In this document: one piece after another, positions 1,365-64,000 of the stretch
Position numbering within the stretch: the first letter of the stretch is position 1
Layout of the letters: every line of letters starts with the position of its first letter
Assembly: GCF_011745625.1 (NCBI RefSeq)
Contig: NW_027191453.1
Coordinates: 744,001-808,000, forward strand
Source: Cladosporium halotolerans
Taxonomy: Eukaryota
Direction of reading: 5' to 3'
Length of the DNA stretch: 64,000 nt
Notes under the pieces: model-generated
The model's database searches: none
Seen by the model: only the letters and a program-made list of their open reading frames with translations
What the model was told of the DNA's origin: nothing
Translations under genes and position numbers: made by a program

Positions 1365-1974
1365 TAGTTAGGAGGTAATTTCCAAGCTCATTGGTCACAG
1401 AGATGATCTCTATCCACGCCAGATGTTTTTGCAAGCGTCCAATCATTCAAAGGAGCTGTATGCTCGGTGAGGGAACAGAATCGAGAAGCTGAAAAGACGT
1501 GACCTCTCCCTTGGTGAATGCAATTTCTGTATTGTAGCAGATCGGCTTGTTTGCCAATGAGGTTATCGTCAAGTCTATCCGGGACTCGGGAAAGTGGTTC
1601 TTCGCATTTTTCGGCCCTCGGCGCCGATGCCAGATGAAGATGTGGAGGTGCTGGAGAAGTGGGACGTCAGTGTGGAGGGTTCCGCATCGAGTCCACGCGA
1701 CATCTATGTCCAGGTGGCAGCCCGAATTTTACACGGCCCTACGTGACATACATGCACGTGGGCCGTCGAGCCAGTCTAAGGCTCATTGTGGCATGGCCTT
1801 CTGCGCTAGGGAATATTAGAAAGAGACATCATCCGGACCATGCCATGGGGAACCCCGGGAACCCGACTCGTGCGGAAAGATCATCATTGCAGATGCCGAT
1901 CGGTACATGAAAGAAGGTATATGTCGCAGTCCATCGCCGCCCAAGAAGTGTAGGCAACCTTGCACCCGCCCATT

Positions 1975-3574
1975 ATGCATTACCCCGTGTCGTTGATGGC
2001 CATTGTGCCAATGGCAATTGGTTTGAGCTTACCAAAGCAGAAACCAGATTGTTCCACATTTGCCCGATCTTTACCTCTAAGCGATTACAATGCGACGATT
2101 CTGAATTCTACCTACTACCCATCGGGGTCTCTGAACAACTCCAACACCTTCAACAGAGTTCCGTTCTGCGAAGTTTATACCTCAATCTCGTACGGGAGCA
2201 AGAATAACACTTTGATTTCCGCAACCTGGCTACCAGATCGCCTGCAATATAATGACCGCTTCATGGCCGTGGGCGGCGGCGGTATGGCGGGAGTGATCGA
2301 TTACGCGAACATGATGACCCAGCTGAATTCTGGAATGGGATTTGCCGTAGCAGGCGGTGACTCTGGGCATCGAGCACAGGACAACAACGGCGGTGGCGGC
2401 GAACCTGGCGTATACCTGCCATACCTTCATGACAGCGAGCAAGTCACAGCTTGGATCCACGATGCCATCAGTCTATTTACCCCAGCAGCCAAAGCGCTGA
2501 CGGCTGCCTATTATGGTCAAGATGTGAGCTATTCTTTCTACGACGGATGCTCCACTGGTGGCGCACAAGGAGTGGCACTCGCTCAGTACCACCCTGGTCT
2601 GTTTGACGGCATTGTTGCCGGGTGTCCCGGCAATTGGTACTCACATCTTGCCTTGAGCTTCCTTTGGAACGCTCAACAGACAGCCGTATGTTTGTGATGT
2701 TCCATTCTTCCACCGAACACCACTGATACCTTTGCAGAGCAATGCAAGCAAGCTATCTCAGGCCAAATTAAACCTCACTACTAACGCCGTCCTTGACGCC
2801 TGCGATCTAAACGACGGCGTTGAGGACCGCCTTCTCGAGAACCCCCTCAACTGCACTTTCGAAGTCGCCACTTTAGCCTGCAACGCCTCTACCACCAATT
2901 CGTCGACATGCCTCAGTCCGCCCGAGTTCCTTGCGGCAAAGTCAATCTACTCCGGGCCACAAAACGCCGCAACTCAACAGCCTCTCTACCCAGGCTTCAC
3001 CCTCGGCTCCGAGATCGAATGGGCAGTGCAACAAGGCGAGCTCTCCTCGGCCTTCAGCGTCCCCATCCTGCAAAACCTCGTCTACGACGACCTCACCTAT
3101 AACGCTTCGACTTTCAACTGGGCTTCCGACGTCGCCGACCTCGACGTGCGCGCCGGCGCCTTCATCGACGCCATCGACCCCGATCTCAGCGCATTCAAAG
3201 ATGCCGGCGGCAAGCTGCTTGTCTACCAGGGTTGGGCGGACCCGTTCAACGCCGCGACGTGGCCGATCGAGCACTTGGAGCACATCCGTCAGGTTACTGG
3301 GGGAGGAAAGGACGTGAGCGATTGGCTGAATTTGTTCATGGTACCTGGCGGCGGACACTGTGGAGCTGCGGCGCACTATCCGCAAGTGCCTGCGAAGTAT
3401 CACAGTGTTGCGAAGATGGTTAAGTGGGTTGAAAGGGGAGAGAAGCCGGGCGAGGTCCTGAGTACTGATGCGCCAGATGGTAGCGGGAGGACACGGAAGC
3501 TTTGCGCGTGGCCGTCAACGGCGAGGTTGGTTGGACAGGATGAGGATGATTGGGGAAGCTATGTTTGCGAGTAG
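1975..3574 (+). CDS. Secreted tannase/feruloyl esterase family protein; intron 2686-2737
   Basis: Signal peptide; GCSTGG nucleophile motif; 'GWADP' Asp and 'GGGHC' His-Cys motifs. GTATGT...TTGCAG intron joins the two ORFs in frame. Confidence 0.92.
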
Positions 3575-14020: not shown

Positions 14021-15946
14021 TCACTCCGACCTCCTCACGACAAAAACCGCAACCTCGACGCCCTTCTTCGGCTCGCAGCCAACATCGTACGGTCTCGTCT
14101 CGACGTCCTTCAGCAGCTTCTGCCAAAGCTCCGTGGCCGAGGGCGGGCGGTCGACGTGGCGATTGCTACTCTTCGTCTGGGCCTCCTGGGCGGTGCGCAT
14201 GACGGCCTCGGTGACGCGGGTCTTCTCCTGCTTGGTCCACCAGTCCTTGGCCCAGGCCTGGCGGCAGAGGGGGACGCGCTTGGTGGACGAGTGGACGAGG
14301 GAGAAGTGGGCGCGCGAGCCGTGGAAGCGGGCCATGGTGGAGGAGCGCTGGGTGAGGTGGGCGCAGAGGGCGACGGTTTTGCGCTCGAGCTCGGCGTGGT
14401 CGAGGAGTTGGGCGACGGCGGGCATGGAGCCGAGGGTCAGGCAGAGCTCGGAGGAGAGGCCGTGGGCGGTGACGGTTGAGCGGAGCACAGGGTCGAGGAT
14501 GGGCGAGAGGTATTCGTGCATGAAGGTCTGGGCGCCGGTGCGGGTCGGGTAGATGAAGACGAGGCTGCCGTTGCGCGGCGACAGTTCGACGAGTCGGTCT
14601 ATGAGGATCGAAGGGCCGTCGACGCTGAACATGTCTTTGAACTCACGATGGCTCGAAGGCGGGATGTAGCGTTCCACTATTGAGACGTCGATGGAAGACG
14701 GCGGTACCACGGGTCGCGGTGATCGAGGTAATGATGACAGGTCTTGCTGATAGTCCGTAATCGGGACTGCACTGCCAAAAACTTTCTGCGTGAAATAATC
14801 GTCGCCGCCGATCGGCGGACCGGGTGTGTTCGGTGGTGATGTGGGGAGCTCCTCCAAATTGAAGCGACCCGGAATCGCATGGAAAACATTGATCCAAATT
14901 GTGGGACTGGCAGGTGTCGAGTCGTGAATCGCCTCGATAATGCTAGTATATGCATGCCCTGTGTTGGACGGACTAGGGAGTGCGTGCGACAGGACTCTCA
15001 GCAACGGATTAGGAACTGGCGATGTTCTCAGATTCAATACTGCAGAACTGTTAGCCCAATCTTTACTGTCCTGAATGATCGACTGACAGATCGTTTGCAC
15101 GGCGCCTTCAAGCCATGCTTTGTCCTCTGGAAGCGAAGGCGTGCTTAACGACACATTCTGCATTGCACCGCTGGCCTCTTTCACGGACTGCTCCATCGAA
15201 TCACTCTGGACCGGTGTGGCGCCCGTTTCAGTGTCGGGTGAATCCATCGCCGCCGTGATCAGCGCAGGCCGCCAGTTCGGCTCTCCCGTCTCAGCCGGAG
15301 GCGTGAGCGTGTGTACATAATGGTGGAGCGGCACATGTGGCGAATGCGCGCAAGCTCCGGGCGATTGAACGCGGACGACATCGTTCGCGCGTCCAGCATC
15401 CGACGCACAGGAAGTGACATCTTCGATCAGCCCAGGATCAGAACGCGAGCGCAATCCTCCACTAAAGGCACGCTCGCGCGCTGCGCCTGCTGCTGCGCTA
15501 TCAGGACCTGGCAGGCAAAGATCGTGAGGAAAAGGGGAGGCTATGCCTAAAGCCTCGAAGCAGGGCAATCGAAGACCGGGTCCCGGCTTTGCCACGACGC
15601 GCTGTGGTGGTGCATCGTTGTGGACAGGAGCGAGAGCGCCGCCGGCGATGATGTCCATATCGGTGCGGTGATTGAGTTCGTTGTCGGCATGCCGCTCTGC
15701 CGGCGGAGTCATGACAATTGCCTGTTTCGGAGCAGCCGGCTCTGAGGGAAGGATGGCGGAGGAGGCGGAAGAGGAAGCATAGGGACTCCACGGACCGGGA
15801 GTGGCGGCGGCGGTCAGGGTGCGTTGCAGGGTGGGAGAGTCTAGGGAGGCATTGCTGCTGAGAGCGGGCGAGGGAATGGCCCTGAGCTGGTGCGGGAAGA
15901 AGGCATTCTGGGCATCAGCTTTCGATGCCTCACCAGCAGGCCCCAT
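14021..15946 (-). CDS. Hypothetical protein, apparently of a conserved fungal type; intron 15040-15087; start uncertain
   Basis: Long ORF with a Pro/Ser-rich N-half and a globular-looking C-half ('LPTSPPNTPG', 'VERYIPPSS', 'LIDRLVELSP..GSLVFIYPT'). First ATG at 15946. Confidence 0.75.
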   Translation of the reverse strand: MGPAGEASKADAQNAFFPHQLRAIPSPALSSNASLDSPTLQRTLTAAATPGPWSPYASSSASSAILPSEPAAPKQAIVMTPPAERHADNELNHRTDMDIIAGGALAPVHNDAPPQRVVAKPGPGLRLPCFEALGIASPFPHDLCLPGPDSAAAGAARERAFSGGLRSRSDPGLIEDVTSCASDAGRANDVVRVQSPGACAHSPHVPLHHYVHTLTPPAETGEPNWRPALITAAMDSPDTETGATPVQSDSMEQSVKEASGAMQNVSLSTPSLPEDKAWLEGAVQTICQSIIQDSKDWANSSAVLNLRTSPVPNPLLRVLSHALPSPSNTGHAYTSIIEAIHDSTPASPTIWINVFHAIPGRFNLEELPTSPPNTPGPPIGGDDYFTQKVFGSAVPITDYQQDLSSLPRSPRPVVPPSSIDVSIVERYIPPSSHREFKDMFSVDGPSILIDRLVELSPRNGSLVFIYPTRTGAQTFMHEYLSPILDPVLRSTVTAHGLSSELCLTLGSMPAVAQLLDHAELERKTVALCAHLTQRSSTMARFHGSRAHFSLVHSSTKRVPLCRQAWAKDWWTKQEKTRVTEAVMRTAQEAQTKSSNRHVDRPPSATELWQKLLKDVETRPYDVGCEPKKGVEVAVFVVRRSE

Positions 15947-16099
15947 GTAAGGAGGGCCCGGGGCGGTTTGGCCGGTGGCAGCGGACGAGCCTTCCGACCC
16001 AACGGACAGGTAAGGGAGGAGGTTCCAGCAGCTGGCGCGGCAGGCGCTGGAGTCGCGGCTGCGGCGGTGGGTGAAGAGCGGTGCCGGGCGGTTGCGCAG

Positions 16100-16810
16100 A
16101 CGAGGCGAGGCGAGGCGAGGCGAGCAGGCGAGGTGCAGGCAAACAATAGGCAGGCGGGAGTCTGCAGCGGATGCGCGCGGGAGGATGGAACGGCGGCGGG
16201 CAGGCGGTCGTGGTTTGGAGAAAGATCGGCGGGGGGAGGAGTGGAAGAGTGGGCGGGCGGGCTGATGAGGTGCGCTGGACGCTGGCAGCAGCAGGAACAG
16301 CAAGAGCAGCTGCGGGTTCGGGGCAGGCGCGACCCAGACGGCGGACGACGGTCAGACAAGCAAGCAGGCGCGCGGGCAGTCAGGCAGGCGGGCAGTCAGG
16401 CACGCAGACACGCAGGCAAGTGAGTAAGCAAGCAGCAGGCAAGCGACGGGCTGCTGCTGCGGTGAGCAAGCAACGGGCAGGGCAGCGAGAGGCGCGCTGG
16501 CACACGGAGGGCGGCGGAGATCACGAGGCGGCGGCGACGACGGCGAGACGGTGGTGGTGGTGCTGCTGACGGGGCCGGTGCCGGGGCTGGTGGTGCTGGC
16601 GGCACGTGTCGAGAGGAGAGCAGTGGGAGCGAGCGAGCGAGCGGCGGCGGCAGCAGCAGCAGCGACAGCGAGAGAGAATGTGCAGCTGCGGTCGTCGGCT
16701 ACTGGCGGTGGGACGGGCAGGCAGACCGGCGGACAGTCAGACAGACAGACAGACTGACAGACACGAGACCGAACGCGAGATTCCACCGGACAGACACAGA
16801 CACACCGACG
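16100..16810. repeat. Low-complexity and short tandem repeats (GGCGA)n, (GGCA)n, (GACA)n in a long upstream/5'UTR region
   Basis: Visible runs at about 16104-16123, 16375-16400 and 16730-16762. Confidence 0.7.
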
Positions 16811-43582: not shown

Positions 43583-44848
43583 CATCCTAGCAAGGCGCTC
43601 GAGAGAGCAACAAGTGCGCCGGGCCCCACAGCGAGCAAGATGTGGACTGGGTCTGATCGACGTAGCCGGCGAGATCCACACGCTCTGCCTCGACGATCAG
43701 ATGGCGGCCGGGGCGGATTAGGGAGAGATGCCGAATGCCTAAATAACGACGTCCCGAAGGGCGAAGAAAAGCCAATTGGCAGCGGACCTGCTGGTGCCCG
43801 GCGGTGATTGGGCATGGCGGACGACACCCATGCGCGCCAGGGTATGCTTGGCGGTGGGTGCGCACGCCTTTCCAACGGCGCGTCGCAGCCGCGTCTCCAC
43901 CTACACCTCGCCATGTGTACCATGTGGCACAGCAGGCGAAGGCGGCGCTGGTCACCGCTCGCTGCCTTCTGACCAGCTCGGGGAGACGCGCCCGGCCAAC
44001 GGGGCATGCGCTCAGGTCAGGCTGGCGACGAGGCCTCCGCGCTCTTCACACAGCCTGCGCGGGAACTGGGGAGGACGAAACGATCCACTGCGCCTGCGAG
44101 GCCCGAAGAGCTCGCAGCGCCTGTGCGGACGCCGGACGGGAGTGCAGTCTGCCCACCGCGGGGCGCGTGCCATTAGCAGCGCCTTTGAAACGCAAGTCCT
44201 CCAGTCCCCCTCTTAGTAAGGTCGCCGGCGTGCTCTCGCAACTGCCGCCCGCGCGTGGACGGCGTGCGCCATGCGCGGACTGACGCTCTGGCAAGATGCA
44301 TCTGCGTCGACGGCCGATCTCCAACAGGCGGTCCAGCTGCCTCTGCTGGCACTCCACCGCCTGCAGGAGTCAGTGGAGGGTTGGGGCGTGCGCTCCACCG
44401 TGCCCAGTTTGCTGCTCCGATGCTCGAGACGTCCAGACGTCCACCTGCCCACGGCCCTCACCCATGTAATCTTGTAGCTCTCTCCCGCATTGGCGATACA
44501 AGAGTCGCCCGGCTGCCTCTCGACACTTGACGTCGGCCCCCAAGCCCGCCTCGCTTCTGCAAGGTGACACCGCAGCCCTCGCACGCCGCATACCGCCAAC
44601 ACGGGATCTAACTCGTCTGGCGTGATCCTTCGTGCACGACACGTCGAGGGCAAGCAAGGCGACGCAATATGGGAGGCCCGTGGGCTGCCGCCGCCGGACG
44701 GCCACACCACAGGGCCGGGTCAGCCAGCCCTGACTGCTGCGCGGCCGCGCTGTCAGCTACGACTGCGACTTACCGCGCAGAGTGCTCGTCGACACCTTCA
44801 CATCAACCTTCCAACTCCACCAGCAACCCGACCGGCATTCTTCGCAGC

Positions 44849-46651
44849 ATGACGCGGAGTCGTCGACGCAGCATCGACCGCGACTCGCCGGCCGAGAGAA
44901 TGATGACTTCCAGAGAATACGAGGCCTTGCCTGCTTCGATAAGGTACGTCCGTCCCCGGCTTCCCGCCGCCGTTTGTCGAGTCGCCTGCCGCCAGCCGTC
45001 ATGTGCAGCAATTTGTTTGCTCGATGTGTCAACGTTGATGCAAGCAAGATTTACGCAAGATCATGAGACTCGATTGCTTATCGATGAGTTGTATCTTTGT
45101 TGCCTACACTCGCATCGAGAAGGATTGATGTGGCAGCTTGCGATTGCGGCTTCCCGCTCGAGGCCACCTGCTTGTGAGACCGAGGCTGATCATCATCACA
45201 GAAAGAAATATTTCTCGTCACAGGAACGAGAACGCATCACACATCAGAGCAAACCATCGATAGACAAGCGCAGCAAACGCAAAGCTACACCCGAGCCATG
45301 CCATATCTCGACGCTCCCCGATAATTGGAAGCCCAACTCGGATCGCAAGCAAAACAAATCGATGACCTCGAGCTTCGTCAGATCTCGCCGTCGTCACTCC
45401 CGGCCCAACATCGAACAGGCGACCGTCAGCGAAGAGCAAGCTGCTTGGTTCCTCTCCTTGCCGGATAAGGTAAAACGTCAACACTTTAGCAAAGAGGAGC
45501 AGATTCTCTTGACCTACCGTTGCGAAACCACGCTAGATAAGAACGGCGTCACTGTGCAACAGGAATCGGCTCAGGACTACTGTCGACGGCAACTCACAAG
45601 GCAATCCGAGGACGGCCAAAAGCGCAAGCACCGTAGAAGGTCTTCCGCTCCAGCGACGATCGCATCAGCCTGTGTTGATGACCAGACTCTGAGCGATCTT
45701 GCGAACGCCGAGGCCCAGCAGGCGGTGGAGGATGGAGAAGAGGGAGACAAAATGGCGATCCTGAATCTTTACTCTAGGAGACACTCCGTCGCTACGACCC
45801 GCGAAAACGTCCCCGAACCGCCAGTGATCCCGCCGGCCCAGATCAGATCATTCAGACGCTCTTTTGCTCTCAGGCCACTCCCAATACCAGCGCCCGTGCT
45901 TGCCCCGTGTCCGTCACCAGGATTCTTCAAGGACAGCCAAAAATCACCAAAAACACGCCGCCGGCCGACGGTATCTTCCATCACTCCTCCAGGAACCTCT
46001 TCTGGCGCGAAGCACTACAAGGATCCCGAGATGCGTCAAGCGCTGCGTGCGATAACATCACCGAAGTTCTTTGACGAGGCTCTCGAATACGGCTTTCCGG
46101 CACCTCCTAACAACAAACCTATGCCCATTGGTTTGCAAGACAAGGCGAGATCGAGGCCGCATTCAAGATCCAACGCATTTACTCACGAAAATGACCGCTC
46201 CTCATCGCTCACCTCAAGCTCCACCGCAACTTCCCTGGGCCGTCCAGGTCCTTCCACGCCCGAGGGCCCAGCGGACTTTCCAGGAAGAGGCTCGGGCGCA
46301 TACGACAAAGCGCCTGACTCGAGCCACAAGCCTCCTTCTCCTCAAAGCCACAACCTCCACCGTCGCGCCATGACGACGGACCACCAGCGGACTCCTTCAG
46401 CCGCAAATCGGGAAATGACGCTGCGAGTCACCCTCACGCGTCCTATTGCGCAGGCCACGGAGGAGGAGCTGTCTGCAGCACCAAAGACGCCACTTCTTCC
46501 ACCGATGATTGACCAGTATGACCCACTTGCACTTGAGAGCATAACGGTCTGCGACGACCCCACCGGTGCTCAGGGCGCCTTCGCTATCCCGGAGAATTCC
46601 CAGAACTTCAGAGGGATCAAGAAGGCCTTCAAGCAACTGGTCCGCAAGTGA
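44849..46651 (+). CDS. Fungal low-complexity hypothetical protein; intron 44944-45201
   Basis: Motif islands 'LPASIRKKYFS' (after splicing), 'FLSLPDKVKRQHFSKEEQ', 'SPKFFDEALEYGFP', 'REMTLRVTLTRP', 'DPLALE'. Confidence 0.78.
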   Translation: MTRSRRRSIDRDSPAERMMTSREYEALPASIRYVRPRLPAAVCRVACRQPSCAAICLLDVSTLMQARFTQDHETRLLIDELYLCCLHSHREGLMWQLAIAASRSRPPACETEADHHHRKKYFSSQERERITHQSKPSIDKRSKRKATPEPCHISTLPDNWKPNSDRKQNKSMTSSFVRSRRRHSRPNIEQATVSEEQAAWFLSLPDKVKRQHFSKEEQILLTYRCETTLDKNGVTVQQESAQDYCRRQLTRQSEDGQKRKHRRRSSAPATIASACVDDQTLSDLANAEAQQAVEDGEEGDKMAILNLYSRRHSVATTRENVPEPPVIPPAQIRSFRRSFALRPLPIPAPVLAPCPSPGFFKDSQKSPKTRRRPTVSSITPPGTSSGAKHYKDPEMRQALRAITSPKFFDEALEYGFPAPPNNKPMPIGLQDKARSRPHSRSNAFTHENDRSSSLTSSSTATSLGRPGPSTPEGPADFPGRGSGAYDKAPDSSHKPPSPQSHNLHRRAMTTDHQRTPSAANREMTLRVTLTRPIAQATEEELSAAPKTPLLPPMIDQYDPLALESITVCDDPTGAQGAFAIPENSQNFRGIKKAFKQLVRK

Positions 46652-49577: not shown

Positions 49578-51329
49578 TCACAACGATGCCCGTCCTTTCG
49601 TCCCCTCCTTCTCCAGCTCCTCAAACATCTCCCCCAACCTGCCCTGCCACTCCTTCACCAAGCCCGGATCCATAGCCGACGCATCCGCACTCACAAAGAT
49701 CGACAACCCGTCCTCCGCCCCCTCAACCCCAATCAAAAACTCCCCCTCGCGCGCCCGCACAGCAGCCTTCATATCCCAAAAGTCTGCCACGAAATCCCTC
49801 CCCTCCTCCTCAAAGTCATACATCCCCCTCCCGATCAGCGCAGCCCGCTTGCCAACACTACTCACGCCGCAAGTCTGCACCGTCGCATTCGGCCGCATCG
49901 CATACGCTCCCTGCGGCCCGGCCTCTACCTCCCCCTCCGGCAACATCTTCGCCGCCCGCTCAATGCTACTCACATACTGCGTCGCCAGCATCCGCCCGGG
50001 CCCCCGACTCCCCATGAACGCCAGCTTCTCCGCCCGCGTCTCCGCAGCCCGCGCCTCGCGCTTCTGGTACACGGCCAGCTGCGCCTGCGCGCGGCGCGCG
50101 AGCAGCCGGATCCGGCCCTCGAGCGGCAAGCGCGACGGCAGGAACGGCAGCTCGATCCCGTCGCTGAACGCGAGCATCAGGCTCTCGGCGCCGATCGGCT
50201 CGCGCAGGAACGGCCGCGGGTTGAGCGGGAAGCCGGTTATGAAGGGCTTGCGGGCGGAGAGCGGGACGGAGGGGTCCGCGCGCTCGTTGAACTCCATCAT
50301 GCTCAGGGCTGCGAGCGCGAAGCAGCCGGCGCCGACGCTCACGCCTGCGGAGCGGCAGAGAGCGCTGAGGCGGGATGTCGCGGGCAGGGAGGCGCGGGCG
50401 AAGACGGGGAGGGTGTTGAGGCGGGGCAGGCGGGTGTAGGAGAGGACGGGGGCGAAGGTGGGTGGGTAGGGGAGGGGAGCGGAGGGGGTTGGGCGGCGGA
50501 GGGGGTTCGCGAAGCCGGCTGGGTGCGGTGTGCGGACGTGGCGGAGGATGCGCGTTAGGAGCCAGAACCAGCGTTTGCGGGCGGGCGAGCCGGTTATGAG
50601 GGGGTAGAGGCTTTCTTGGGGCGGAGGGAGGCGGGAGAGGAGGGAGGTCGGGGTAGTGTTGGCGCGGAGGGCGGTGTGGAGGTCCGGCAGGGATTTGTTG
50701 AGGATGTGGACGAAGGACCGCATCCAGGTGTAGTTTGTTAGGCCGTCGGCGATTTGGTGGCCGAGGATGAGGAGGAAGCGGAGGTTGAGAGTGCCGTCTG
50801 GGTTTGTGTTTAAGGGGAAGACGAAGCATTTGCTGAGGCATTGGGAGGGGTCGATGACGCGGGCGGTGTTTTGTGCGTGGACCCAAAACTCGTAGGGGTC
50901 GACTTCTGTGAAGTGATCTCCCAGGAATACCAGGCTATCTTTTGCTGCGGCGATCGCGGCGTTTTCATCCTTGGGAACGTCCACGACTGAGTAAATCGGC
51001 TGTGTTGTCACTGCTGAACCTGACATATAGCTTCGTCGCTCCACCGCCTTAGATTGTGCCAGTGGGTGTTCGAATTGGAATAATGTCCAGGCAAGCAAGA
51101 TCCGATGCCGTAGGTCTTGCGTGCTGATGTTCGACTTTGCAACCAGGTCAAGCTGAACGTTGAGGTCCGCTCGACCTTCATAGTATCGACCATCCGAGTC
51201 GAATGCGTACTCTACAAGGCCCAAAGGCCGGTAGAATTTTGTATTCCCGCCATCGGTTGCGGTCTTCCATGCGTAGGCTTCTGCGTTGCCATACTGTTCC
51301 CGCCAAGGTGGGGTCGGAGAAGTCGGCAT
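49578..51329 (-). CDS. CoA-dependent acyltransferase/condensation-fold protein
   Basis: HxxxDG motif 'GHQIADG', 'RPLGLVE', 'LPPPQESLYP', 'CGVSSVG'. First ATG at 51329. Confidence 0.7.
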   Translation of the reverse strand: MPTSPTPPWREQYGNAEAYAWKTATDGGNTKFYRPLGLVEYAFDSDGRYYEGRADLNVQLDLVAKSNISTQDLRHRILLAWTLFQFEHPLAQSKAVERRSYMSGSAVTTQPIYSVVDVPKDENAAIAAAKDSLVFLGDHFTEVDPYEFWVHAQNTARVIDPSQCLSKCFVFPLNTNPDGTLNLRFLLILGHQIADGLTNYTWMRSFVHILNKSLPDLHTALRANTTPTSLLSRLPPPQESLYPLITGSPARKRWFWLLTRILRHVRTPHPAGFANPLRRPTPSAPLPYPPTFAPVLSYTRLPRLNTLPVFARASLPATSRLSALCRSAGVSVGAGCFALAALSMMEFNERADPSVPLSARKPFITGFPLNPRPFLREPIGAESLMLAFSDGIELPFLPSRLPLEGRIRLLARRAQAQLAVYQKREARAAETRAEKLAFMGSRGPGRMLATQYVSSIERAAKMLPEGEVEAGPQGAYAMRPNATVQTCGVSSVGKRAALIGRGMYDFEEEGRDFVADFWDMKAAVRAREGEFLIGVEGAEDGLSIFVSADASAMDPGLVKEWQGRLGEMFEELEKEGTKGRASL

Positions 51330-51996
51330 GTTTTTTTGTTGGGATGAATATGGCGCAACTTCAAAAGATAGATGATCGGGCAAACAATAAGCAGATGCAA
51401 ATCTATTCGAAGCAATCAATCTATCAATCTGAAGTAAGCTCGAGTCAATGATATCGATGAAGACTTGCGGAGCCTGGTGAGCGAGGACCAATGGGGAAAG
51501 ACGTCTGTGAATCCTTTCCAACCAAGTTCGGGCGGGGAAAGCTGCGGTCAAAACCATCCGTGCCTGTCAGTGTCGACCTCATCTCAGAAACCACGAATCT
51601 TTGTACGAGGTCCAAGCCTCTTTAAAGCGGCGGGAGATAACAAGGGGCTGGGTGAGGCAAAAAGCTGTCTTGGATGTTGAGCAATTTGAGCAGCTAAGTC
51701 TACTATTTCGGGTCCTTCAGATCTTCGCAACTGCAGCAAGTGCAGAGCAAATGCAGTCCAGAGCAAGGACAAAAGACGCAAACTTGTATCATGGCCTGTC
51801 CGCCGTCTTTGACACCCTTGAGCAAAGTTACATTTTGAGTGGTTCGTTGTAAAGACATTCAGACATCGTTGGATTTCGCCTTTTTGGCCTTCTCGCCCTG
51901 GGTGGCAACATCATCGTCCTCCGTAACAGCTCTCTTATTTCCAGTTCCACCATTCTGCGCCTGAGACCTCTCAAACGGTTTGTCGGAAGGGAGAAA

Positions 51997-53650: not shown

Positions 53651-55385
53651 CTAAAGCTCCTTGGCCAGAATCTTGCTCTTCCTCCGCAAAGTGGCTCCAA
53701 AGTAAAAGAACACCAGCGGAATGGGTATCATGATCGCCGCGAGACATCCCAGAAGAGTACCAGCCCACTGAATTCCCAGATTTGCGAACATCTGACGAGT
53801 GAAGAGCGGGAAGCCTGCTGCAACGATGGACCGGAGCATGATGTTGGCTGCAACGGCGGAAGCCGCACTGCAGTGTTCGGTCAATCTTCGTATATCGACA
53901 ATGATCGAAGACAAGAAACTTACACCGGGAGGTATGCATCAATCAAGTAGTTGAAACAAGGCATGAATATGCACAGCATTCCAGAACCAGTCAGGATGCC
54001 GGCACACGATGGCACGATCCAGTGGATGGTGGGATTCCACGCCGTCCAGGCGAACCTGACAATAGATGTTAGCAATAAATAAACGACGATGCACCGAAGC
54101 TAGTCCTGAACCTACCAAAAAAGACCGACAGTAAAAACAGGTGCTCCGATGATAGGATAGTCCAGGCGCCATTCGGGAATGGGGACGTTATTGTTGGCCT
54201 TTAATTTCTTGCCGTACGAGCCATGGAGCGCAAGAATCCCTAGGACAGAAATGATCACGCCCAGCGTCATGCCCATGAATGGAAGACCTCGCTCGCCAGG
54301 GTTCATGTCGTACATCTCCTCGAAAACGTACGGATACGCAACGAGGAGCGCATATATGATGCCGTAGATGAATGACATATACATCGAGACAAGGAAGACG
54401 ATCGGCTCCGTGAAGAGCATCCTGATCGGGCGCGTGAAGTACTTGCGCAGCATTTCCTTTGGGTCGAACTCAATCCTCTCTTGCTTTGCATGGACCGCCC
54501 AGTTGCCGGTTTCTTTCCGGATTTGCACAGCCTTTTCCGTCAGGATGAGCGCTGCATAGCTTTCGTTGACGAAGAAAGTGATGCAAGCCGCGTCGAAGAA
54601 ACCCAAAATTGCGGGAATGTACAATGTCCACCGCCAACCCAAAGAGCTCATGGAAATGAATCCTCCCATGAATGGGGCGAGCAATGGTCCGAGGAAAATG
54701 GTGAGTGCGTACAGCGTCACTGCCACTCCGCGGTAATTGTTGTTGTACATATCTGCCAATACGCCTGGCACAACGCACAGTGGGCTTACACCACACACGC
54801 CTGAGAAAAAGCGGCAGATGATGAGAGTCTGAATGTTGGCTGCTGTCGCAGCTCCGATTGTGAAGATGGAAAGTCCGAGCATGCCAATCAGCAGAGGCCA
54901 TCGTCTGCCAATGACCTCAGATCCAGGTGCCCAAATGACGGGGCCAAAGAAAAATCCTAGCATAAAAAGACTGGTTCCTAGCAGGCCAACAAGTGTACTG
55001 ACTTCAAACTCATGGCTAGCGTAGAAGCCACCTGGGGCAAAGAGCGCACTGGCGAAGGCTGACACGAATGTTCCAAAACAGGCGATCGTTGCTGTATAGC
55101 ACCTACGCACAGGGTTAGTCCACGTTGGCATTGGAAGCAAACGAAGATGTACTTTTTCCAGGTCGACCAGTTCTGGGGATTGCGGGGATCGTCGGGTCCT
55201 TCGAAGTCCACAACATAGTCTTCTTCTATAAGCAGTGCTGGTACTTGCTTTCCTCCTCCCATGCAAAAGACGCTTTGGATTGGTGCCTTCTTCCCGCCGT
55301 CGCTTTCAAGTGGTGTGTTGCAGCCGCTGGGCATTGTCAATGTCCCGCATGACTCTAAAGCCGTCACATGCTGCGGTATCTGCAT
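53651..55385 (-). CDS. MFS drug:H+ antiporter DHA1 (Flr1/Tpo1-like); introns 55103-55152, 54056-54115, 53868-53923
   Basis: 'VDFEGPDDPRNPQNWSTWKK', 'WAPGSEVIGRR', 'LGWRW', 'RPIRMLFTEPIV', 'IPEWRL', 'YLIDAY'. Confidence 0.93.
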
Positions 55386-56248
55386 TTTGATTTGGTCCTA
55401 GCCTCCGAGGTGCTGCTCAAACAAAATTACAATAAGACGAAGCGCGCAGAAACTCCGTTGAAGAAGCTTCCGTTTGGCGCGAAGGTTGGATATAACTGCT
55501 ATGATAGATGAGAGGGCGTGTATACCAACATCATGCGAACGAGGGGACTCCAAAATTTGATTTGTCGCAGACACAGGATTGCACGCGCATATTCGCGGTG
55601 ACCGTGCGCTGGGAATGGAGCCGGGAAGGGGCGGGGATACGCGGAATCCATTCGATATGTTGTGACTTCTGCTCGGTCTTCTATACTCTTCTGAGAATGA
55701 CAAGACCCATCCCGAGACTTGGAGAAAGACCGTCCCATGATTCACGCTATCGCGATGTGGCGGTGACTCTTGCACTGTCGACGAAAGCTTGTTTGCGGCT
55801 GTGAAAAGATAACATGCCGCAATAACGCCGTAGTTGGGCTGAGACTGTGGATCCGATCATACCGTACGGCGTTTGAATGAGCCGCGTGGTTGACGATATT
55901 GACTGCCCATCATATTACCAATAAGAGTAAGCAGAGCAGAAAGGCCAAACTGAAATCATATGGAGAGTGCCACAATTGGTATGCATAGGGATGAGGTGTG
56001 CGGCTAGAGTCAAGTTTCGACAGCGAGTGTGGCCCGATTTCCGAACCTCCCGCCAGATCATCATCCGGTAGGGCTGAGATCGCGCTGCATCCGATGAGGC
56101 TCTCATCATCCATGCGTACATTGTGGCACGACTCCTCGACCAGTCTGTGATGTCGCATTTGTCTTACCCGTCCGCTCAGATGTCGCGTCGATGCGTCGCG
56201 AACACCATGTCGCCACCCAGAATTGCATCATACCGACGATGACCAAAG

Positions 56249-58024
56249 ATGGACGGTGCGATTTCACCTAATTCACAGCTGGGAGATGGTACGAATGGCC
56301 ATTCGAAGACCGGCTCATCGACTGGCCATGTCCGGAGGATGCGGGCCAGGAAGGCCTGCGAGCCCTGCCGTGAACGAAAGCGGAAGTGTGACGGCGGGAA
56401 CCCATGTAGTTGCTGCGTCCGCTATGAATACGATTGTTATTATTTCTCCGTTCGCGAAAGGCGGGGAATGACTGCATCGTCGTCGCATCACGCGTCTCCG
56501 CCGAACATGGAAGCCCGCGCGCCTACTCTGGCACCACCACCACCCGTTCGAGAAGTGCATGCACCATCACCAGGCCCACACAGCCAGCTGCAGTCTTTGG
56601 AAGCGAACTCTGGCGCAGCATTCGTGAGAAAGTTGGCTGTGGGCATAGATCCAGCGAACGCGCCTCGACTACATCTATTTGCGTGGAACCTGTTCCTTGG
56701 AGCTAGGAAATCAATGCGAGAACCGAGCGGACTACCTGTCACAGAGATCATCACGCGCGCAACAATGGAGAGCCTGGTGGCGTTCTATCTGGAGAAAGTG
56801 GATCCGTGCTATGGCTTCATTGATCGCGCAATCCTGGAGCAGCGTGTCCAAGCACGGTGGGAGATCGGATCACTCGCAGGCCCATATGATGCTGTGCTGT
56901 GTGGAGTCGCCGCACTTGGTCTGCTTTTCTCACAAAGGTTCGTGAGCGATATTGAAGTCGACCTCGTCGAATCTGCGAAGCGTATCCTGGAGCGCTCGAT
57001 CGAAGGCCACCCTGGCATTGACATTGTGACCGGCTGGGTCCTCCGAACCGCTTACCTGAGGATGACTGCGTCTCCTCATGTCGCATGGATGGCCAGTTGT
57101 ACTTTGATGCACATGGTAGAGGCATCTGGCATTCATTCTGCTCACTTGTCGGAGAATATCCCCGGGATACAACGCGATAGCTTTGCAGCCCCGGAGCTTT
57201 GCCGACGATTATTTGGAGTTGCCCGGCACCTGAATGTGTGGATGTCTTTCGAAATGGGTCGCTCGAGAGTCATTCTCCAGAATGCCACCCACGAGGGGCC
57301 CTCTTCGCGTCCAGGCGACTCTACTGCAGAGCTTCTCAGCTTGCTTCCTTGGTCAGAGTCCCTTGATCCTGGTAAGGATGTAGACCTGCCGAGCCTGAAA
57401 GCCACACTATCCAGCGTGCTTGATCGCGAGCTCACAATACCATCCACAATTTTGGCACACTGCAATCTTGTTCTATGTCTCTGCCGGCGACTTCGCGCGC
57501 TGGACTATGTGATCTCTGGCGAGCCCTTGGACAGGATCCTAGCTTTGACTGCAAGAAGCATACGCTGTGCTCAGGCAAACTTGGACTCCGGGAGTGTGTG
57601 GCACCATACGGCGAACGTGCCTTTCCAGATCGTGTGCATCTTGCTGGCGTTCGACACTCCGTCATCTATCGCACAGCTCGGCGATGCAATCGGTGTGCTG
57701 AAGAATGCCGCGCAGCTGTACGAGACGGATGCCGCAAGAGAAGCTTGTAACACTGCGTGCCTATTGGTACTGTTGCATCAGAAGCGCAAGGAAGCAGATA
57801 CCAAGAGCCTGTCCAACGTCCTGCAGTCATATTCGGCTGCGCCGGTTGCTGAGACAAACACAGCACCATATCCAGCGACGGACGCAAATGGACTTCACAG
57901 CTGGAACGACTCTTCGTGGCTGGACGATCTCATGACAGATATGCCTAATCTTCAAGGCTTTGATATAGGCCAGATACTGGATGGAAACAGTCTATGGGAA
58001 ACGCCAGCGGTTTGGCCACAGTGA
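56249..58024 (+). CDS. Zn(II)2Cys6 transcription factor, RDR1-like
   Basis: CEPCRERKRKCDGGNPCSCCVRYEYDC cluster; 'SLEANSGAAFVRKL', 'LHLFAWN', 'WHHTANVPFQ'. Confidence 0.9.
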   Translation: MDGAISPNSQLGDGTNGHSKTGSSTGHVRRMRARKACEPCRERKRKCDGGNPCSCCVRYEYDCYYFSVRERRGMTASSSHHASPPNMEARAPTLAPPPPVREVHAPSPGPHSQLQSLEANSGAAFVRKLAVGIDPANAPRLHLFAWNLFLGARKSMREPSGLPVTEIITRATMESLVAFYLEKVDPCYGFIDRAILEQRVQARWEIGSLAGPYDAVLCGVAALGLLFSQRFVSDIEVDLVESAKRILERSIEGHPGIDIVTGWVLRTAYLRMTASPHVAWMASCTLMHMVEASGIHSAHLSENIPGIQRDSFAAPELCRRLFGVARHLNVWMSFEMGRSRVILQNATHEGPSSRPGDSTAELLSLLPWSESLDPGKDVDLPSLKATLSSVLDRELTIPSTILAHCNLVLCLCRRLRALDYVISGEPLDRILALTARSIRCAQANLDSGSVWHHTANVPFQIVCILLAFDTPSSIAQLGDAIGVLKNAAQLYETDAAREACNTACLLVLLHQKRKEADTKSLSNVLQSYSAAPVAETNTAPYPATDANGLHSWNDSSWLDDLMTDMPNLQGFDIGQILDGNSLWETPAVWPQ

Positions 58025-59028: not shown

Positions 59029-61269
59029 TTAGATGCCAGAGTCGTGCTTGGCGTAGAACATGCCCGAGGAGTAGGAGTCCCAGGCCTGGCACTGGCTGTC
59101 GAAGTCGGAGGGGAATTCCTCGACCTGACCGATCCTCTCGGGCGACTCTAAGAATTGAACCGCAAGACCTTCGTCCGCGTGCCACGCTATATGGCAATGT
59201 AAAACCCGTCGGGTCGTTAGCATGGGGTCATAGAATATCGAGAAAGGTTTAGGTTCGTGGGGACTTCGCTTACCCATGCACCAGGGTTGTCAGTCTGGAA
59301 AGCAAGCGCCAACCAGCCGTTGGAGGGCAGCATGGCGGTGTCGCGACGGGTCGGGTTGTTGTAGTTGAGGTTGTTGATGTCGCTCTCCTGCCAAGCCTGC
59401 TGGCCGGCTCCGAGGACGTAGAAGTCGTGGCCGTGCAAGTCTAGATCAACGATTAGCAACCGATCAAATGCCATTTATGCTTGAATTGGAGAACTCACGG
59501 ATCGGGTGAGGAACCTGGACGTTGTAAGGGTTGCCAGGAACAGAGCGGATGACCCAGTAAGTCCAGGTGCCCTGCTGGGGCAGCTGGATGATGTTGGCGC
59601 GCTCGGGGAAGTTGTCGAACTGGCCGTTCTTGATGTAGTCGAGGGTCGGCTTCTCCCAAACAGCGTTGAGCGAGGAGCCGTTGACGTTCCAGTACAGGGT
59701 GAGGGAACCGTCGGAGCCCCTGGTCTGGTTGAGCCAGGTGTCGAGCGGAGTCATGTTGTCGGCGACCTCGCCGGTGGGGACGTAGGAGTTCCAGTACGGG
59801 GTCAGGCCCTGCTCGTCGGTGCAGCGCTGGGTGTAGGGGGAGCCAGTGCTGATCGGGGTCTCGTTCTCGTGGCCCTCGTAGGAGAAGATGGACAGAATGT
59901 TGCCGTTGTTGGCGTTGTTACCGCAGCCGGCCTGGTTCTGGACCTCGGCACGGAACCAGTAGCTACCGGCGGCCTGGTTGGCGGTGATGATCACGTCGTA
60001 GCGCTGGCCGATACCGAGGAAGATCCAGGAGGTGTTGTAGGGAACGATAGGGACAAAGTCAGAGGCAATGACCTGCATCTGGTGGCCGTCGAGAGAGACC
60101 ATGTAGTGGTTGTCGACGGACATGTTGATCAGACGGACGCGGTGCTTCTTGTCCTGAGTCAACATCGTCCTCTCGTGCTCACCGCCGCTAGCGGAAACCT
60201 GCTTGCCGTTGATGAGAGCGGTGTCGGCGGTAGGGGGCGAGCCATCGAAGTGAGCAACGCGCTGAGAAAGAGTGTTGACGGTGGGGTAGTACCAGTCGGA
60301 GATGGTCAGAGGGCCGGACTCAATGTCGTAGTTGGCAGTAGCGGGGCCGTGAACGATGATGGGGCCAATGATACCGTCGCCGTACTGGCAAGAGAAGTGA
60401 GAGTGGTACCAGGAAGTACCGTATTGAGTAGCCTGGAACCTGTAGGTCTTCTGCTGACCAGGGGCGATAGGGCACTCAGTGAGACCGGGGACACCATCCT
60501 GAGTGTTCTTGTGCCACTGGCGCAAACCATGCCAGTGGATGGAAGTTCCGTTGTTTGCCATCTCGTTCTTCACGGTGACCTCGACGTAGTCACCCCAGTT
60601 GACCTCGATAGCGGGACCAGGGTACTGGTTGTTGATGCTGAAGACCTCGCGAGAGACACCGTCCGGAGCCATGGTGGTGTTGGTGATGGTCCAGTCATAG
60701 CGAACAGTCTTACCAGTGGTCGGGAAGTTGCTGTCGAAGTCGGTGTCGATAGAGAAGTTCTCGTCCCAGCACTCACGCGAGGTCGGGCTGTTGGTGCAAA
60801 CCGGCTCAGGTGCCGTTGTAGGCTGGGAGCCTGCAGTGCTCTGCCAAGTGTCGGATTGAGTCGGGTTCGCGGCGCAGTTGTTGGGGACAGTGTAGCTGTG
60901 GTTCGGGTCCTGCTCCCACACAACGGTTCCGTCGGTTTGGAAAAGAATGTACTTGTATTGGAAAGATGTGCCAGGCGGCAGGTTGACAGAGGTAGTCCAG
61001 AGAGGGTTGTCGTCCGAGTATCTCGAGGAGGCGGAAAGGTAAATGGCGCTGGCGGGGTCCCAGTTGCCGAGTTGAGGAATGGATCCGACGACCGAGATGC
61101 TCTCGCCCCAGGCAGTCTCTCTCAGCTCATGGAAGCTGACTGAGACCTGGAGACAGTCCTGGTCATTCTGACGGGCGACCAGGGTGGACTCGCTCCTGGG
61201 AAGGACTGCAGATGCTGCTGCAGAAGCAGCCAGCGCGACAACGCTGGCGAAAGAGAAAGAAGGAAACAT
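59029..61269 (-). CDS. Secreted CBM20-laccase (AA1 multicopper oxidase) fusion; introns 59441-59498 and 59206-59273 (non-canonical acceptor)
   Basis: Signal peptide; CBM20 'WGESISVVGSIPQLGNW...LW...YKY...WE.DPN'; copper motifs HWHG, WYHSH, HPIHLHGH, HCHIAWH; C-terminal DSGI. Confidence 0.9.
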
Positions 61270-62793: not shown

Positions 62794-64000
62794 TTAGTCA
62801 TCGACAATATCATCATCCTCCAGCACCAACTTCTCGACCTGACTCTCTACCGGAATGCCGAGTCCTCCACCTTCGTATTTAGTGCCCGCGCCCGGCCTGC
62901 GCTTCGCTTTCGTCCCTCTCAAACGGCCGGAGGCGTCCGCGTCCGGTTTATCCGTTGCCCACTGCTCTCCCGCCTGACCTTCTTGATCTCCAGCAGCGTC
63001 GAACTCCTCGTCGTTGTCATTCTCTGGAACAGCACTGGACGCAATGCGTGTTACGCTCAGAATCTGGTCGAGAGCTGATGGTGGCGCTTTAGAGGATTCC
63101 AGTATGCGGGCCATGTAAGGCAAGCGATCGATCAGCATCTCCGTTTTCGCGGACGGCATGGCTGTGCTGCCTCCTGAAGTACCGTCCGCTTCGCGCTTCC
63201 AGCTAGCCACACCGGAATCGGCGCCTCTCACCCGCGCTGGCCCATCACCGTCCAAACCGCCCTTTTGCACCTTGTCCGTGAGCAGCTGCAGCATATCTTC
63301 AATTTCCTCCCTTTTGCGCCATAGCTTGAGCGACTTCGGGTAAAACATGTGATGTGAATCTCCTCGCTTTCCATTAGCCGGCGTGCTCCTGTGCACTGGA
63401 CACGGAAGACTGAAAAGAACTCCGCGTACAGCAGCCTGGAAAGACATCTCGTCTTGCCTCAAGGTGTCGGTAGCCGAGCCGGAAAATGCGCGCGTGCCAA
63501 ACGAGAAGCGGTCGAGCGACAGCAGATCCGCATCGGAAATGCTGTCAATGCAGCCGTTAATGCTATCAAGGGTGTCTTCGGAGCTAGAACATGAACAGGA
63601 GAGCGCATAGTTCTCGTGCAGAGCGGCGATGTAGGTTGTAGGGTCAGTCCCCAGCTCGTCGATTAGTCGATCCACATCCGTCTCCGGTACCTTGCTGCGC
63701 CGATGTTGCGGCAACCAAGGTGGAGGTTGCGCAAGACTGGCTTCGTGATCTGGGGATTTCCGCTTGTTGTAAACGATTTTGCCCACCGAGTGAAAGATAC
63801 CTAAGCTGTTTTCGCGATTACTGATAAGTTTGAGAGCCTCTTCCTCTGCTTTCGTCAGGCTGGGCTCGCCCTTGGCCTTTTTCGGTTTGGTGAATGCCAC
63901 TCTTGAAGACCACGTATCTCCGTCGTCCCCGAGAAGACAGAGAAATTCCAATGACGAGACGGCACTGCGGATGTCTCCCGTTTCTGCAATGTGTTTGAGA
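62794..64000 (-). CDS. RAD17: Checkpoint clamp loader Rad17/Rad24, 5'-truncated by window edge
   Basis: 'GDIRSAVSSLEF', 'RENSLGIFHSVGKIVYNKR', 'ALHENY', 'DSISDADLL', acidic 'DDDIVDD' tail. Confidence 0.88.
   Translation of the reverse strand, partial: LKHIAETGDIRSAVSSLEFLCLLGDDGDTWSSRVAFTKPKKAKGEPSLTKAEEEALKLISNRENSLGIFHSVGKIVYNKRKSPDHEASLAQPPPWLPQHRRSKVPETDVDRLIDELGTDPTTYIAALHENYALSCSCSSSEDTLDSINGCIDSISDADLLSLDRFSFGTRAFSGSATDTLRQDEMSFQAAVRGVLFSLPCPVHRSTPANGKRGDSHHMFYPKSLKLWRKREEIEDMLQLLTDKVQKGGLDGDGPARVRGADSGVASWKREADGTSGGSTAMPSAKTEMLIDRLPYMARILESSKAPPSALDQILSVTRIASSAVPENDNDEEFDAAGDQEGQAGEQWATDKPDADASGRLRGTKAKRRPGAGTKYEGGGLGIPVESQVEKLVLEDDDIVDD

Follow-up and report, generated by a model that had tools for sequence, protein, structure and literature searches.

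Laccases with an attached starch-binding domain were first described in 2019, when ZtrLac1A of the wheat pathogen Zymoseptoria tritici (XP_003852363) was reported as the first laccase to carry a functional CBM20 (PMC6700816). According to the accessible part of that report, the enzyme binds beta-cyclodextrin with a Kd of 32.6 uM (about 33 uM), oxidises ABTS, hardly oxidises DMP and does not oxidise syringaldazine, and its preference for ABTS is tied to Lys381 in loop A and Gln437 in loop B; seven CBM-bearing laccases are given in its Table S1, where Cladosporium is absent (PMC6700816). Host chloroplast starch has been proposed as the ligand of CBM20 laccases (PMC6700816, PMC13153316), whose physiological substrate was called unclear in a 2026 review (PMC13153316), and the Baudoinia orthologue has served as a design model (PMC10343422).

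Introns with a GT donor and a non-AG acceptor have also been recorded in fungi. As far as the accessible text of these sources goes, GT-GG accounts for 0.041% of introns in Ganoderma lingzhi, where GT-GG, GT-TG and GT-CG each make up 0.02-0.04% (PMC11590231); GT-GG introns occur in Fusarium graminearum (PMC3577648); and the yeast spliceosome is able to use BG acceptors close to the branch point, chiefly in the absence of Prp18 (PMC10711555). GT-GG is absent from the main text of PMC7072748.

We analyzed a CBM20 laccase gene in a 64,000-nt stretch of the Cladosporium halotolerans genome (contig NW_027191453.1; hereafter the window). The gene lies on the minus strand, runs from a start at 61269 to a stop at 59029, and encodes 704 amino acids in three exons (Table 1); all 704 codons of the spliced model are free of stops and frameshifts. 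Residues 1-590 of P0121, a Cladosporium halotolerans record, are identical to the product of exon 1.

Table 1. Features of the CBM20 laccase gene and its two syntenic neighbours, in window positions.
Feature	Position	Strand	Evidence or remark
Signal peptide (about residues 1-20) and propeptide to R33	61171..61269	-	By eye and alignment
CBM20 starch-binding domain, C39-Q143 (Pfam match 41-135)	60841..61155	-	PF00686 E 1.4e-32; 1AC0 E 7.3e-27
Ser/Thr/Pro linker, about residues 144-154	60808..60840	-	Sequence; between CBM20 and start of 1GW0 match at residue 155
Exon 1	61269-59499	-	590 codons
Exon-1 portion of laccase catalytic part, residues 155-590; HWH 245, HSH 289, H588	59499..60807	-	PF07732, PF00394; 3PPS E 9e-111, 1GW0 E 4e-107
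Intron 1, 58 nt, canonical GT-AG, interrupts HPIHLH motif	59441..59498	-	Skipped in spliced X3 and X15 contigs
Exon 2 (HLHGH ... DNPGAW)	59274..59440	-	PF07731 E 1.5e-18
Intron 2, 68 nt, GT-GG: donor GTAAGC, branch point GCTAAC 59221-59216, acceptor CGG 10 nt later	59206..59273	-	Skipped in X3 and X15 contigs; X1 and X5 DNA with CGG
Exon 3: HCHIAWH 649-655, axial Leu660, C-terminal DSGI, stop	59029..59205	-	PF07731 E 1.3e-6; 55% identity to ZtrLac1A C-terminus
Zn2Cys6 transcription factor, syntenic neighbour	56243..58024	+	PF00172; 5/14 orthologous loci
Rad17/Rad24 checkpoint gene, 3' part, syntenic neighbour	62794..63999	-	PF25812; 8/14 orthologous loci

The original prediction of a signal peptide and propeptide agrees with inspection of the N-terminus and with its alignment to ZtrLac1A; R33-Q34-N35 is constant in all 12 close orthologues and can be aligned with the SRQ of that enzyme. 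The complete CBM20 expected ahead of the laccase was recovered by the profile search, which matched nearly the whole Pfam CBM_20 profile (positions 1-94 of 97; 61149-60865; 111.8 bits against a cut-off of 23.3). The predicted Trp and Lys residues are likewise in place, since W70, K106, W118, Y84 and W91 correspond to W543, K578, W590, Y556 and W563 of the Aspergillus niger glucoamylase domain 1AC0, with W54 standing where that domain has Y527; these six 1AC0 positions we take to be the starch-binding residues of sites 1 and 2. The 1AC0 domain is C-terminal on a GH15 hydrolase, whereas the CBM20 of the window protein is N-terminal. The window CBM20 also has a Cys39/Cys132 pair that ZtrLac1A lacks.

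Three cupredoxin domains follow (PF07732, PF00394 and PF07731). Cu-oxidase_3 (residues 195-309) and Cu-oxidase (318-466) share the 590-codon exon of the CBM20, so the fusion lies inside one exon as had been claimed, and Cu-oxidase_2 is encoded by exons 2 and 3. In the spliced model the copper motifs HWH 245, HSH 289, HPIHLH 588-593 and HCHIAWH 649-655 supply ten His and one Cys, the axial residue is the non-coordinating Leu660, and the DSG(L/I/V) C-terminal plug takes the form DSGI. All four predicted motifs are thus present together with the axial Leu and the DSGI end; what had been missed is that the fourth can be read in frame only when splicing of intron 2 uses a non-AG acceptor, CGG. The closest solved structures, the laccases of Thielavia arenaria (3PPS) and Melanocarpus albomyces (1GW0), share the ascomycete laccase motifs and are without CBM20.

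Our homologue search returned 2283 proteins among 7999 scored candidates. CBM20 and laccase domains occur together in 57 of the best 120 of these 2283 homologues; an organism name is attached to 24 of the 57, and of six named organisms that were looked up, five belong to Dothideomycetidae and the sixth, Peltaster, is Dothideomycetes incertae sedis. A tree was built from the catalytic part (a quick IQ-TREE run with midpoint root, P0121 standing in for the window protein) with 54 of 222 proteins, less two of low coverage, leaving 52 rows. All 26 CBM20-bearing rows, P0121 and ZtrLac1A among them, fall in one 30-row clade (SH-aLRT 100), where, of the four rows without CBM20, three have starts that fall within the catalytic domain and P0054 seems genuinely CBM20-free. 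Judged by its sequence, the window laccase is an orthologue of ZtrLac1A, and the same two neighbours recur beside it among 14 orthologous loci found in the 80 metagenome loci examined (Table 1). Its domains, motifs, orthology, synteny and spliced transcript were all observed for the window gene directly. Its identity to the other laccases of its own genome (G000) does not exceed 50% across the catalytic part, and the window gene is the single best copy. The fusion of CBM20 to a laccase is therefore not new, because the characterised ZtrLac1A in the same clade was already published in 2019 (PMC6700816, accessible part) and the architecture is shared by many close homologues; the novelty originally attached to it falls away.

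Within this family, P0054 retains a signal-like start with the CBM20 gone, which is likely a loss. P0015 and P0016 are orthologues with a tandem pair of CBM20 domains ahead of the laccase, and P0027, P0034, P0035, P0040 and P0049 (about 780-825 aa) have about 100 added residues N-terminal of the CBM20. Weak, sub-threshold PAN-domain hits in P0027 and P0040 point to a possible PAN-CBM20-laccase variant. Four additional G000 matches to the CBM20 part of the query (C218:307153-307485, C35:336488-336883, C394:486073-486387 and C276:171964-172248) are probably amylolytic enzymes.

The window protein resembles ZtrLac1A in its order of signal/propeptide, CBM20, linker and AA1_3 domain, in its clade, in all copper ligands and in its DSG(I/V) end, with identities of 54% over exon 1, 59% over the catalytic part of that exon and 55% over exon 3. 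The two differ in the axial residue (Leu against Phe in ZtrLac1A) and in the loops, where the window protein has Ser522 and Pro578 in place of Lys381 and Gln437, so that the residues linked to an ABTS-only preference are not shared. The two loop replacements suggest that its activity on phenols may exceed that of ZtrLac1A and, together with the axial Leu, that its substrate range may be nearer to that of the Melanocarpus enzyme. They lower the case for the same specificity, not that for orthology. Glucan binding and laccase activity would carry over to the window protein from ZtrLac1A, which binds beta-cyclodextrin and is an active laccase in the accessible part of its description (PMC6700816), so that a laccase tethered to starch or another alpha-glucan, as first proposed, is well supported. 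We consider it very probable that the gene is a functional, single-copy ZtrLac1A orthologue encoding a secreted, glucan-held laccase that needs the CGG splice. In such an enzyme, which would be a secreted AA1_3 laccase, the N-terminal CBM20 would hold the protein on alpha-1,4-glucan while phenolics or mediators are oxidised at the T1 copper and O2 is reduced to water.

Two codons ahead of the HCH copper motif, intron 2 ends in CGG instead of YAG. Its donor (GTRAG) and branch point (CTRAY) are both consensus and a YAG acceptor is absent. The CGG splice restores the W-x-x-HCH spacing found in 100 of the 102 homologues that run more than 20 residues beyond NPGxW; the two exceptions are NCBI's model for C. 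halotolerans, which lacks 27 residues, and its model for C. fusiforme, which lacks 6; both have lost HCH. Ten AG sites lie within 160 nt of the donor, and a normal W-x-x-HCH junction results from none of them: canonical models built from them shift the frame, lose HCH or require an implausible 5-nt intron (AG at +5). A 149-nt intron 2 leads to a 677-aa protein without HCH that is equal to NCBI's P0121, and retention of the intron leads to a stop after 19 codons. Searched against G000, intron 2 gave one match, the window itself, which speaks against a repeated or introner-like element as far as a search that can miss matches allows. AG occurs inside the 68 nt only at +5 and +10, and no nested second intron (stwintron) was found. 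Folding around intron 2 is unremarkable (z 0.80; 161 of 200 shuffles fold as well).

Assembled contigs from four of the 24 listed sequencing runs (X1, X3, X5 and X15) were compared with the window. DNA contigs of X1, which may be the source of the window, cover the stretch without a difference and keep CGG. A 1633-nt contig of X3, from the same sample as X1, has no mismatches and skips exactly 58 nt and 68 nt; we take it as RNA because the introns are missing. Its perfect match extends across exon 3, a region about 8% divergent between strains, and although its second joint is ambiguous by 4 nt, the sole reading that starts with GT is GT-GG. Intron 2 is thus removed via CGG in the assembled transcript, and splicing keeps the C. 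halotolerans-type gene in frame. DNA of X5, from a separate study and about 98.5% identical, covers the site without gaps and keeps CGG; its four C>T changes fall at other sites, so position 59207 is unchanged. On two contigs P0194 runs through the same junction. Removal is presumably the work of the ordinary U2 spliceosome, which, with no AG close by, probably settles on the G that is correctly spaced from a strong branch point; production of active enzyme would then require spliceosomal use of the CGG acceptor 10 nt past that branch point.

The X15 contig shows the same 68-nt skip with 16 differences in the exon-3 piece; as proof of the acceptor it was dropped, since its exon 3 is another haplotype and its own acceptor is not visible. 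Exon 3 (59029-59205) differs from the window by about 8% in X5 and X15, compared with about 1% over the remainder of the gene, and its third positions are A or T in 11 of the first 19 codons against 78 of 413 codons in the exon-1 catalytic part (p 3e-4, for a region picked by eye). This divergence possibly reflects old haplotypes or constraint near a weak acceptor. A degenerate exon-3 pattern had no matches in genome and viral contig collections, as expected of collections without fungi.

Among relatives, all 11 genomic Cladosporium-like loci with coverage of intron 1 have it canonical and in the same place. For intron 2, coverage extends to 10 orthologous genomic loci, several of them near-copies: it is absent in two, canonical in seven and non-AG in one. 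Relative to the window (+0), the non-AG case, L015, has its intron at +1 with a TTG end; L016 has a TAG end at +1, and six further loci have CAG at +6. The read-through ORFs P0190, P0204 (61 contigs) and P0205 imply, at the protein level, a +1 donor and a 112-nt intron with a pyrimidine-G acceptor; L026, where both introns are absent, has the matching W-V-M-H junction and is not strain-matched. Counting these ORFs, a non-AG acceptor is found in three lineages, each cut 10 nt past the branch point with the last G kept, compared with 11-13 nt for the canonical acceptors at this site. The contiguous ORFs P0130 and P0136 have the W-I-A-H junction of L016 type. Laccase paralogues in G000 carry canonical introns at +0, +1, +3 and +6, so the spot is labile across laccase genes generally. 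Seven further ORFs (P0185, P0186, P0188, P0189, P0199, P0200 and P0206) begin at a Met before HCH and are uninformative about the acceptor, and P0201 could have a canonical acceptor. The ORF of P0131, a near relative of the intronless L013, stops right after GAW and may represent an intron at -1 or a contig end.

Like the published fungal GT-GG, GT-TG and GT-CG introns and the yeast BG acceptors, intron 2 has a GT donor and keeps the last G with the A gone; unlike them, it has a non-AG acceptor seen again in several lineages at a single site, while its position shifts. Rare GT-GG introns are known, and what is new here is this non-canonical, position-shifting last intron, which we did not find in print; our literature search, which misses most subscription papers, returned no publication on it.

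That CGG is an assembly error, or that the 68-nt skip arose when reverse transcriptase switched template at the 4-nt end repeat, might be argued from the four letters that fit both sides of the joint and from X1, which is not independent if it is the window's source. The unchanged X5 site from another study, the P0194 read-through, the consensus donor and branch point, the lack of a stable fold and the restored spacing make either extremely unlikely. A decaying gene, in which a point mutation killed the acceptor and left leaky splicing, would account for the absence of an in-frame AG that preserves HCH and for the divergence and A/T-rich start of exon 3 described above. We nevertheless regard decay as very unlikely: the 704 codons are intact, the exon-3 protein equals P0185 (27 contigs) except for its first residue, the form assembled in X3 is the spliced one, and CGG is common to a second strain. 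A weak acceptor could also have been kept by selection as a throttle or switch, with splicing giving active enzyme and retention or use of the next AG giving a product that has lost the Cys and His ligands of T1 and is degraded or persists as a copper-less starch-binding protein. In its favour, the intron gates an essential motif while intron 1 is canonical and fixed, the C. fusiforme model likewise lacks HCH, and three lineages have non-AG ends (CGG in the window, TTG in L015, pyrimidine-G implied for P0190, P0204 and P0205) of types that each make up so small a share of Ganoderma introns in the accessible text of PMC11590231. However, the intron looks dispensable, given the seven canonical and two intronless loci among the 10; the variable -2 base fits drift after one ancestral loss; the RNA structure signal is absent; and the alternative isoform was not seen in contigs, from which rare forms drop out. 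Selection for such a switch therefore seems unlikely to us, and it is equally doubtful that several Cladosporium lineages regulate their output of active laccase through a non-AG acceptor gating the T1 copper motif.

Our preferred reading, a functional laccase spliced at CGG, leaves a choice of surface in vivo, where starch of plants or algae and glucan of the fungus itself have roughly equal odds. We tentatively entertain, with somewhat less than even confidence, that the ligand of the CBM20 is glycogen or wall alpha-1,4-glucan made by the fungus itself, giving the enzyme a role in pigment deposition or cross-linking in the wall and not on plant starch. CBM20 laccases occur in Cryoendolithus, Friedmanniomyces, Elasticomyces, Recurvomyces, Hortaea, Salinomyces, Baudoinia and Piedraia, eight genera that we take to be rock-dwelling, halophilic, surface-growing or hair-dwelling black fungi and not leaf-infecting. 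This spread beyond leaf pathogens weakens chloroplast starch as the ancestral role. Of the 59 listed window ORFs, 30 long ones were scanned (13 without a Pfam hit), and no amylase or AA13 matches were found among them. The same 30 ORFs, however, include no melanin-pathway gene, and saprobes meet starch too, in litter, pollen and algae. Furthermore, ZtrLac1A is nearly inactive on DMP and syringaldazine in the accessible part of its report (PMC6700816), and the published proposal points to the host chloroplast (PMC6700816, PMC13153316). A saprobe host could be a convenient system for finding the real substrate.

The CGG splice corrects at least one public gene model. The public C. halotolerans and C. 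fusiforme models are without the copper motif and look inactive, and laccase inventories of the common genus Cladosporium may be wrong at this gene. With an essential motif placed after a labile intron whose non-AG acceptors recur, the gene lends itself to compact tests of how faithfully acceptors are chosen and how introns slide in filamentous fungi. Should the regulatory reading hold, the site would also record sliding in progress (+0, +1, +6 and loss) among orthologues that are 82-96% identical and be a natural test case for intron shifts through non-canonical intermediates.

Around the laccase, no starch or melanin gene cluster was found among the 30 scanned ORFs. An MFS transporter and the Zn2Cys6 factor lie divergently just downstream (54112-58024). 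Antisense to exon 1, a 552-codon stop-free frame (59485-61143, plus strand) is Pfam-negative and probably a shadow of C-rich codon use. Three other long ORFs (14021-16351, 44612-46651 and 49578-51566; 776, 679 and 662 aa) are also Pfam-negative. At 1954-3574 on the plus strand, a tannase/feruloyl esterase is split across two frames (profile positions 18-169 and 175-480).
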